A stretch of 64,000 bases of DNA from Escherichia coli (GTDB taxonomy: Bacteria; Pseudomonadota; Gammaproteobacteria; Enterobacterales; Enterobacteriaceae), in assembly GCF_003334255.1 (NCBI RefSeq), contig NZ_QOWU01000004.1. The stretch is one strand, 5' to 3'. This document shows, one piece after another, positions 48,866 through 49,150 of this stretch. Positions within the stretch are counted from its first letter, which is position 1. Every line of letters begins with the position of its first letter. Below the pieces are notes generated by a model. That model saw only the letters and a program-made list of their open reading frames with translations, searched no databases and had not been told where the DNA came from. The position numbers were made by a program, and so were the translations under genes.

Positions 48866-49150
48866 ATGATTACTTATCACGACGCATTCGCGAAAGCGAA
48901 CCATTACCTTGATGATGCAGATCTCCCGGTCGTCATTACTCTACATGGACGCTTTAGCCAGGGCTGGTATTTCTGTTTCGAAGCACGAGAATTTCTCGAA
49001 ACTGGAGATGAGGCCGCGCGCTTAGCTGGTAACGCACCTTTTATTATTGATAAAGACAGTGGTGAAATTCATTCTCTGGGAACGGCAAAACCGCTGGAAG
49101 AATATCTACAGGATTACGAAATAAAAAAGGCTACCTTCGGCTTGCCCTGA
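48866..49150 (+). CDS. yrhB: Small protein YrhB (94 aa)
   Basis: ORF MITYHDAFAKANHYLDDADLPVVITLHGRFSQGWYFCFEAREF...; GC content returns to genome-typical here. Confidence 0.88.
   Translation: MITYHDAFAKANHYLDDADLPVVITLHGRFSQGWYFCFEAREFLETGDEAARLAGNAPFIIDKDSGEIHSLGTAKPLEEYLQDYEIKKATFGLP

Follow-up and report, generated by a model that had tools for sequence, protein, structure and literature searches.

Escherichia coli yrhB is probably an orphan Imm35-family immunity gene left behind by a toxin-tip exchange on an Hcp carrier

Among the proteins that polymorphic toxin systems are predicted to use for immunity is Imm35 (Zhang, Aravind et al. 2012, PMC3482391). In that work, which predicts from genomics, it is linked to the papain-fold toxins Tox-PL1 and described as Tox-PL1-specific, and Table 3 lists as its traits an alpha+beta fold and conserved Trp and Ser/Thr positions. 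The Pfam model for Tox-PL1 is PF15644, which carries the description 'Gln_amidase: papain fold toxin 1, glutamine deamidase'. In the searchable literature we found no experimental test of any Imm35/Tox-PL1 pair, and among the chains of the PDB there is no sequence relative of YrhB, of the Imm35 profile or of the Tox-PL1 domain. The YrhB protein of E. coli resembles the described pairs in its end-to-end match to Imm35, in its alpha+beta fold and in having homologues that follow Tox-PL1 domains, whether these are carried on Hcp, carried on CdiA or encoded on their own. It differs from them in that yrhB has no toxin partner that could be found in the DNA analysed here or in E. coli.

Papain-fold toxins are also known among the Hcp-ET effectors of Enterobacteriaceae. 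In reviews of Ma et al. (2017, Virulence), ET1 is an HNH-DNase and ET5 is a papain-like peptidase with the immunity protein ETi5. By this classification, the YhhZ protein encoded close to yrhB has the architecture of Hcp-ET1, and the genes found at the same locus in Escherichia fergusonii and Citrobacter have the architecture of Hcp-ET5 and a small gene for immunity beside them. According to PMC6730261, strains of the K-12 type have no type VI secretion system (T6SS), so YhhZ itself may be undeliverable in such strains.

The papain-fold interbacterial toxin that has been studied well is Cpe1, a papain-like cysteine protease neutralised by the immunity protein Cpi1 (PLoS Biol 2025, PMC12136450). 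The likeness to the present case lies in a papain-fold toxin that acts in the cytoplasm, is delivered by a T6SS or by contact-dependent inhibition (CDI), and has a small immunity protein encoded next to it. The two belong to different families, as Cpe1 resembles the ComA/LahT maturation proteases of ABC transporters. Cpi1 blocks substrate binding by Cpe1 and not its active site (PMC12136450), which counsels caution against assuming that YrhB plugs a catalytic cleft. The folds of PepSY and of the cystatin-type peptidase inhibitors are also listed among the closest known systems.

CDI and Rhs loci are the classic setting of orphan immunity genes. Orphan cdiA-CT/cdiI and rhs-CT/rhsI modules remain at these loci after their toxin tips have been displaced, and such modules usually keep a fragment of the displaced tip. 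The locus of yrhB shares with them a conserved carrier, a sharp switch of the tip, a new tip with its own immunity gene and an old immunity gene downstream. The carrier here is Hcp, unlike the CdiA or Rhs of the classic cases. In addition, there are orphan Imm35 genes that lie downstream of CdiA proteins with other tips (L033 and L040).

The yrhB gene occupies positions 48866..49150 on the plus strand of the window, by which we mean the whole stretch of 64,000 nucleotides of E. coli DNA that was analysed. It is an open reading frame of 94 codons running exactly from ATG to TGA, and RefSeq genomes carry it under the name yrhB. The gene order in this part of the window is yhhW, yhhX, yhhY, yhhZ, yrhA, yrhD, yrhB, ggt, yhhA, ugpQ. 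The encoded protein is acidic (pI 4.73, with 16 Asp and Glu residues against 8 Lys and Arg), and its N-terminus contains no hydrophobic stretch that would suggest a signal peptide; the coordinates, size and acidic charge given in the initial annotation are borne out. From its match to Pfam and the features given below, yrhB is a real gene and more than a chance open reading frame.

To its 5' side yrhB borders on an AT-rich block, of which it marks the 3' edge and which is made up of yhhZ (34% GC), yrhA (28.5%), yrhD (33%) and a 199-bp spacer (28%), parts of which range over 28-34% GC. The initial annotation placed yrhB at the boundary of this islet, as composition confirms, and also gave it a host-like GC content, which it does not have. 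Its GC content is 45.6% with 40% at third codon positions (GC3), compared with approximately 52% and 57-65% in the flanking host genes, so that yrhB is intermediate between the islet and the host. The toxin-paired orthologues have a GC content of 43% both in E. fergusonii and in Citrobacter, and from this similarity we take the composition of yrhB to be the gene's own and not that of its host.

A search of YrhB against Pfam identifies the Imm35 family (PF15567) with an E-value of 4.6e-23, residues 5-83 of the protein aligning to model positions 1-85 of 85. The same family is precomputed on nearly all of 102 YrhB homologues. An exhaustive search finds 1018 clusters (at 50% identity) related to YrhB at E <= 0.001, and homologues appear in NCBI as 'YrhB family protein', while one Yersinia entry in UniRef is named 'Immunity protein 35 domain-containing protein'. 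NCBIfam was uninformative both for YrhB and for the neighbours of stand-alone Imm35 genes. The profile search against immunity families that the initial annotation had suggested therefore gives a clear and full-length answer, and its speculative label of an orphan immunity-type gene turns out to be well founded. The family assignment is already present in databases; what the history of displacement at the locus and the orphan status across E. coli add to it is modest.

The AlphaFold2 model of YrhB, made with 67 homologues, has a pLDDT of 94.8 and the order helix-strand-strand-short helix-strand-strand-C-terminal helix. In an alignment of 67 sequences with 29-83% identity, G33, W34, G55, N56, P58, G66 and G72 are each at least 90% conserved, and among the closer homologues T73 does not vary. 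YrhB keeps all of the residues conserved across the family, including G33-W34 and L53-A54-G55-N56-x-P58-F59, and in its fold and its retained Trp and Ser/Thr positions it has what has been described for Imm35. The remaining hallmark of the family is a position directly downstream of a Tox-PL1 or Ntox40 domain. This adjacency is absent from the window and from E. coli, on which account we call yrhB an orphan member. It is present in the same-locus orthologues of E. fergusonii and Citrobacter, in the homologues that follow CdiA and at 9 of 26 loci taken from species representatives. Adjacency to a toxin is in this case a property of the ancestral locus and not of the YrhB protein.

The interval between yhhY and ggt shows how the orphan may have arisen. 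In E. fergusonii (locus L023) it contains a 383-aa Hcp fusion, with matches to T6SS_HCP (2e-11) and Gln_amidase (1.2e-17), followed by yrhB and then by the convergent ggt. The YrhB protein of this species is 83% identical to that of E. coli, and the stop codon of the toxin and the ATG of yrhB share one base. In Citrobacter portucalensis (L006) the same interval is occupied by a 386-aa protein with Hcp and Gln_amidase domains, directly followed by a YrhB homologue with 73% identity.

In the window the corresponding carrier is YhhZ (46747..47925, plus strand), which is annotated as tssD / Hcp1 family effector. YhhZ is an Hcp protein with a C-terminal toxin extension of the Hcp-ET type, matching TIGR03344 (E 3.8e-34) and Pfam T6SS_HCP (2.5e-11), and its tip is HNH-like, although the match to HNH is weak (0.013). 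In its N-terminal part, Hcp carrier and linker, YhhZ agrees with the genes of E. fergusonii and Citrobacter. Over residues 1-235 it is 86% identical to the E. fergusonii carrier, and beyond them the two are unrelated; in the comparison with the Citrobacter carrier identity is 71% over residues 1-251 with none after it, and the junction is the same (residues 235-238).

The break can also be followed in the DNA. Using blastn, positions 435-1155 of the E. fergusonii locus align with window positions 46683-47403 at 93.6% identity, and positions 1645-2300 align with 48862-49516 at 90.2%; nothing aligns between these two blocks of homology. Since homology is lost after 47403 and returns at 48862, a cassette of 1458 bp (47404..48861, plus strand) comprising the HNH tip, yrhA, yrhD and the spacer appears to have replaced a Tox-PL1 tip of 489 bp. 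The right-hand recombination breakpoint (48862..48865, plus strand) is placed where homology to E. fergusonii resumes, 4 nt before the yrhB ATG, and it coincides with the compositional step at the edge of the islet. This position explains why yrhB in E. coli has no translational coupling of the kind seen in E. fergusonii. Two signs of tip displacement are found here, namely an abrupt switch of the tip at a fixed junction and an intact ancestral toxin-immunity pair at the orthologous locus. Judged by these alignments, yrhB is older at the locus than the HNH tip.

The same junction has received at least one further tip. Citrobacter sp. FP75 (L032) has a third tip at this position of Hcp, in which Pfam recognises no toxin family, together with an 86-aa open reading frame, and these are followed by the yrhB homologue and ggt. 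A fragment of the displaced tip of the kind that classic orphan modules usually keep is not found upstream of yrhB, as a tblastn search of both Hcp-Tox-PL1 proteins against positions 46401-49300 matches the Hcp part only. The locus offers a clean and datable replacement of a tip on an Hcp carrier, with at least three tips at one junction and the old immunity gene kept. It may be useful for studying how orphan immunity genes build up and whether they protect across species in the gut, and it does not represent a new kind of system.

The incoming cassette brought its own small genes. The yrhA gene (47922..48416, plus strand) has a start that overlaps the stop of yhhZ by 4 nt, and this overlap makes yrhA the likely cognate immunity gene of the HNH tip. 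YrhA matches the NCBIfam YrhA family (NF038335, E 1.7e-35) and has no match in Pfam, so that its assignment as an immunity gene comes from position; on this ground the partner of YhhZ is almost certainly yrhA. It is followed by yrhD (48511..48666, plus strand), a 51-aa open reading frame annotated under that name, which has no match in NCBIfam or PADLOC and is annotated as partial or as a pseudogene in some strains. The anti-phage models of PADLOC were also compared with YhhZ, YrhA, YrhB and the E. fergusonii Hcp fusion, and none of these proteins gave a match.

The initial annotation had proposed that YrhB might neutralise the C-terminal domain of YhhZ or other nuclease toxins. In such a role YrhB would give additional or reserve immunity against the HNH tip or against nuclease toxins generally. 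Its gene is on the same strand as yhhZ, approximately 0.9 kb downstream and in the same block of small genes, and polymorphic-toxin loci often contain several immunity genes (PMC3482391). Against this, it is yrhA and not yrhB that overlaps the yhhZ stop, the HNH tip reached the locus later than yrhB, and yrhB is present without yhhZ in 233 E. coli genomes. The toxins that directly precede YrhB homologues at the loci examined are always Gln_amidase/Tox-PL1 and never HNH, in agreement with the published specificity of Imm35 for Tox-PL1. We consider a nuclease target extremely improbable, and the toxin to which the evidence directs us is Tox-PL1.

The neighbourhoods of YrhB homologues outside this locus are consistent with a Tox-PL1 partner. 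Homologues with 62-70% identity directly follow a CdiA protein whose extreme C-terminus is a Gln_amidase domain; this arrangement occurs in Pectobacterium (four loci, one of them in an array of orphan CT modules), Pantoea ananatis and Yersinia kristensenii. A Luteibacter genome encodes a stand-alone 129-aa Gln_amidase followed by a YrhB homologue with 37% identity. Stand-alone or array copies of Imm35 are also present in Enterobacter and Limnobaculum.

A scan of one genome per species, with the closer YrhB alignment as the query, gave 26 loci, which were searched with our own toxin and immunity HMMs. At nine of these the Imm35 gene begins 1-20 nt after the end of the toxin domain. At three (Citrobacter sp. 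FP75, L033 and L040) the Imm35 gene is downstream of an Hcp or CdiA protein with a different tip. No toxin was recognised in the flanks of 1-4 kb at 12 of the 26, and five of the Imm35 copies at these 12 are frameshifted or partial. One locus (L047) is a probable contaminant and another (L042) is at a contig edge. The initial annotation held that an immunity role would be refuted if homologues never co-occurred with toxin genes; E. fergusonii, Citrobacter, the CdiA loci and the nine loci of the scan are clearly at odds with such an absence. Across 11 pairs the identity of the toxins correlates with that of the immunity proteins (r = 0.78), which agrees with inheritance as a unit; co-evolution is not concluded from it, as the correlation would follow equally well from linkage and a shared phylogeny.

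Within E. coli, yrhB is present in 4069 of 5426 complete genomes (75%), and in 4049 of these 4069 carriers the match covers at least 80% of the gene. The full block including yrhB is found, at a coverage of at least 80%, in 3758 genomes. In the 233 genomes without a Hcp gene at the locus, yrhB stands alone after yhhY and behind a different spacer of 95 bp. A simple deletion does not readily account for this yhhY-yrhB-ggt variant, as its 95-bp spacer has no match in the K-12-type islet or in the loci of E. fergusonii and Citrobacter. The yhhY-ggt interval is a hotspot of deletion and insertion in E. coli and exists in several states. IS1-mediated deletions have kept yrhB in some strains and removed it in others. 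In O157:H7 the interval contains a DUF4225 gene instead, and there is also an empty-site variant; neither of these two variants contains a remnant of yrhB. The DUF4225 protein of O157 has no homology to a 294-aa neighbour in Citrobacter. As yrhB is absent from approximately 25% of E. coli genomes, it is dispensable.

The partner toxin was also sought directly. A blastn search in distant mode with the Tox-PL1 tips of Citrobacter and E. fergusonii found no match in the 5426 complete E. coli genomes, a search at the level of DNA that a very divergent copy would escape. There is no E. coli name among the best 120 protein relatives of the Tox-PL1 toxin, which include proteins from Scandinavium, Erwinia, Pseudomonas, Pantoea, Acinetobacter, Salmonella (an Hcp fragment) and others.

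These features raise the question of whether yrhB is a functionless relic that is carried between two conserved genes and has not yet decayed. The gene has no toxin, no translational coupling and no clear ribosome-binding site, it lies in a hotspot with empty, DUF4225 and IS1-deleted variants, and frameshifted or partial copies of Imm35 are known in other species (L050, L051, L054, L056 and L057). The orphan alleles, however, do not look like decaying sequence. Nei-Gojobori dN/dS values between them are 0.06-0.31, with dS up to 0.23, and in comparisons with E. fergusonii they are 0.21-0.26, each comparison resting on 10-45 substitutions. All four alleles that were read are intact open reading frames, and nearly all carriers have the gene at the coverage given above. 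Strain EcPF15 carries a yrhA with an internal stop and a partial yrhD, and yrhB is intact beside these pseudogenes. Its expression has moreover been reported in the literature. Between the E. coli and E. fergusonii proteins residues 33-89 are identical, and 12 of the 16 differences fall within residues 5-20 (helix 1). The retention of the conserved positions, the identity over residues 33-89 and dN/dS values well below 1, a mark of purifying selection, argue that E. coli maintains a functional protein in this orphan, and decay in progress is a very unlikely account of it. If helix 1 is the contact surface, the specificity of YrhB could have drifted.

The region upstream of yrhB now consists of the AT-rich spacer (48667..48861, plus strand, 28% GC) that came with the cassette. 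It contains promoter-like hexamers: positions 48835-48864 and 48842-48870 resemble sigma-70 sites, and directly next to the yrhB ATG is a TATAAT hexamer. On inspection of the sequence no evident Shine-Dalgarno (SD) motif precedes the ATG. As yrhB is without translational coupling and without a clear ribosome-binding site, its expression may be weak. A genomic-SELEX peak of RpoS has been reported between yrhD and yrhB (PMC5493296), and yrhB is induced by cold shock, with a 5' UTR described as AT-rich and weak in SD (PMC7873864). The two reports together show that yrhB is expressed on its own.

The protein has a different label in part of the literature. PMC10723866 cites Ahn et al. (2012, FEBS Lett 586:1044) for an activity of YrhB resembling that of a chaperone, and YrhB is among the chaperones listed in PMC6598250. 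The UniProt name was still 'Uncharacterized protein YrhB' when E. coli proteins without a known function were surveyed in 2025 (PMC12506659). Machine-learning tools, for their part, have wrongly given the protein an enzyme function. The main role of YrhB could be that of a stress chaperone, small and very stable, which is what has been reported for BL21(DE3), with its immunity ancestry being only history. The upstream RpoS-dependent promoter signal and the cold-shock induction are in keeping with such a role, as is the retention of the gene in strains without a toxin partner. The distribution of the gene is difficult to reconcile with it, since yrhB is missing from about a quarter of E. coli genomes and from most Enterobacterales outside toxin loci. 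The most conserved positions of YrhB are, in addition, the family-wide positions of Imm35, which it has in common with the toxin-adjacent homologues. Small, acidic and highly stable proteins often aid the solubility of a fusion partner non-specifically, and this weakens the chaperone reading further. We judge it unlikely that chaperoning is the main role. The patchy distribution and the pattern of conservation point to immunity as the selected function of YrhB, and a chaperone activity is possible as a side activity or a re-use of the protein.

We therefore favour, with good confidence, the reading of yrhB as an orphan Imm35 immunity gene against Tox-PL1 that was left by a swap of the Hcp tip and has been kept for resistance. 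The ancestral yhhY-ggt locus would have encoded an Hcp-Tox-PL1 fusion with yrhB translationally coupled to it, an arrangement still present in Citrobacter portucalensis and E. fergusonii. On the branch leading to E. coli, recombination within the linker that follows Hcp would have exchanged the Tox-PL1 tip for an HNH-nuclease tip together with yrhA and yrhD, and the old immunity gene would have stayed downstream without its toxin. YrhB itself would be a cytoplasmic immunity protein that neutralises the papain-fold toxin Tox-PL1 (Gln_amidase, PF15644). As an orphan it presumably protects against the Tox-PL1 toxins of neighbours, which may arrive by T6SS, on the Hcp fusions that E. fergusonii, Citrobacter and Salmonella produce, or on the CdiA proteins of other Enterobacterales. 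The protein may form a tight 1:1 complex with the incoming Tox-PL1 and block either the active-site cleft or the binding of substrate. An AlphaFold2 model of a toxin-linker-YrhB fusion, made with 12 paired sequences, reaches a pTM of 0.66, with a pLDDT below 50 in the N-terminal, catalytic part of the toxin.

The comparative evidence leads to a hypothesis that can be tested cheaply, namely that YrhB neutralises the Tox-PL1 domains of the E. fergusonii and Citrobacter Hcp fusions. A bolder proposal is that yrhB is a selected cross-species shield against the Tox-PL1 toxins of gut Enterobacterales such as E. fergusonii, Citrobacter and Salmonella, or else that the immunity protein has been turned into a stress chaperone inducible by RpoS and by cold. 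We regard this proposal as rather doubtful. If it is true, either role would amount to a demonstrated function for a K-12 gene and would provide a first experimental handle on Imm35 and Tox-PL1, including the target of the toxin.

Finally, the convergent genes yrhB and ggt are separated by a strong GC-rich hairpin that lies between their stop codons at 49157..49180 (no strand assigned), with a 10-bp stem, a folding energy of -17.5 kcal/mol and z = -4.97. The initial annotation described it as shared by the two genes. The hairpin is there, but its T-run is on the minus strand, that of ggt, only; it scores as an intrinsic terminator of ggt and for yrhB it is at best a U-less stem. The hairpin is conserved in E. 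fergusonii.

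The Imm35 gene yrhB is found in several different settings between yhhY and ggt. In 233 E. coli genomes yhhY lies immediately 5' of yrhB, with a spacer of 95 bp between the two genes. This arrangement is represented by loci L003 (positions 5905-6013) and L025, from E. coli EC01440 and EC16. The spacer has no match in the K-12-type islet or in the E. fergusonii or Citrobacter loci. The YrhB proteins of these genomes begin MMIYQEAF, which is nearer to the E. fergusonii form.

In E. coli EcPF15 (locus L026, 1382-3785) the annotation shows an intact yhhZ, a yrhA with an internal stop and a partial yrhD; yrhB is intact. 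The presence of the toxin gene yhhZ with a broken copy of its presumed antidote gene, yrhA, suggests that YhhZ is inactive or not expressed in this strain. yrhD is a 51-residue open reading frame (ORF) within the incoming cassette (window 48511-48666), searches of it against NCBIfam and PADLOC gave no matches, and in several strains it is annotated as partial or as a pseudogene. This ORF is possibly a small gene of the immunity type, or else a remnant.

A third toxin tip is present in Citrobacter sp. FP75 (locus L032, 2448-4553), joined to Hcp at the same junction near residue 230. A Pfam search placed this tip in no toxin family. It is followed by an 86-residue ORF, the yrhB homologue, an 83-residue ORF and ggt, and the Hcp gene itself is broken by a frameshift or stop into parts of 81 and 335 residues. 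The 83-residue ORF before ggt is shared with the C. portucalensis locus (L006) and is not found in E. coli.

Damaged toxin genes are also found beside Imm35 in other loci. The Gln_amidase ORFs located 5' of Imm35 in two Variovorax/proteobacterial loci (L053, 3628-3894; L055, 3622-3876) and in Serratia microhaemolytica (L038, 112-381) are truncated at the N-terminus and lack the region of the catalytic cysteine (HNCVNC), and in a further locus (L045) frameshifts have broken up the toxin. Such ORFs resemble orphaned pieces of toxin, next to which the immunity gene has stayed intact.

Imm35 genes also occur alone or in arrays. In Serratia oryzae (L037, 270-863) and Erwinia sp. ErVv1 (L049, 3095-3655) the stand-alone Imm35 gene is preceded by a conserved ORF of 186-197 residues beginning MTLQA[AT]Y[IL]E[QK]PTPG, for which NCBIfam gave no match, and which may encode an unrecognised partner. 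Limnobaculum xujianqingii (L012, 2672-9231) contains two Imm35 paralogues, with 69% and 68% identity to YrhB, these are 4 kb apart within a run of about 15 small ORFs on the same strand. The run includes matches to DUF596, DUF6896/MafI2 and DUF7336, a 366-residue protein with a weak adhesin-like match stands ahead of it, and it looks like a poly-immunity array. The last 50 residues of YrhB, with 100% identity to E. coli, are encoded on a 439-bp contig of Tannerella forsythia ATCC 43037 (contig050, L047). This contig almost certainly reflects contamination of the Tannerella assembly with E. coli DNA.

No Shine-Dalgarno sequence is recognisable ahead of yrhB (window 48835-48870), and in the same stretch a consensus TATAAT ends one base short of the ATG. 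If this served as a -10 box, the transcript start would fall within the ORF. In the empty-site variant of E. coli JML285 (L005), which carries a frameshift in ggt, the hairpin 3' of ggt (approximately 6960-7000) is AAGCCCTC...GAGGGCTT. This differs in sequence from the hairpin linked to yrhB, and the ggt terminator seems to move together with whichever element fills the hotspot.
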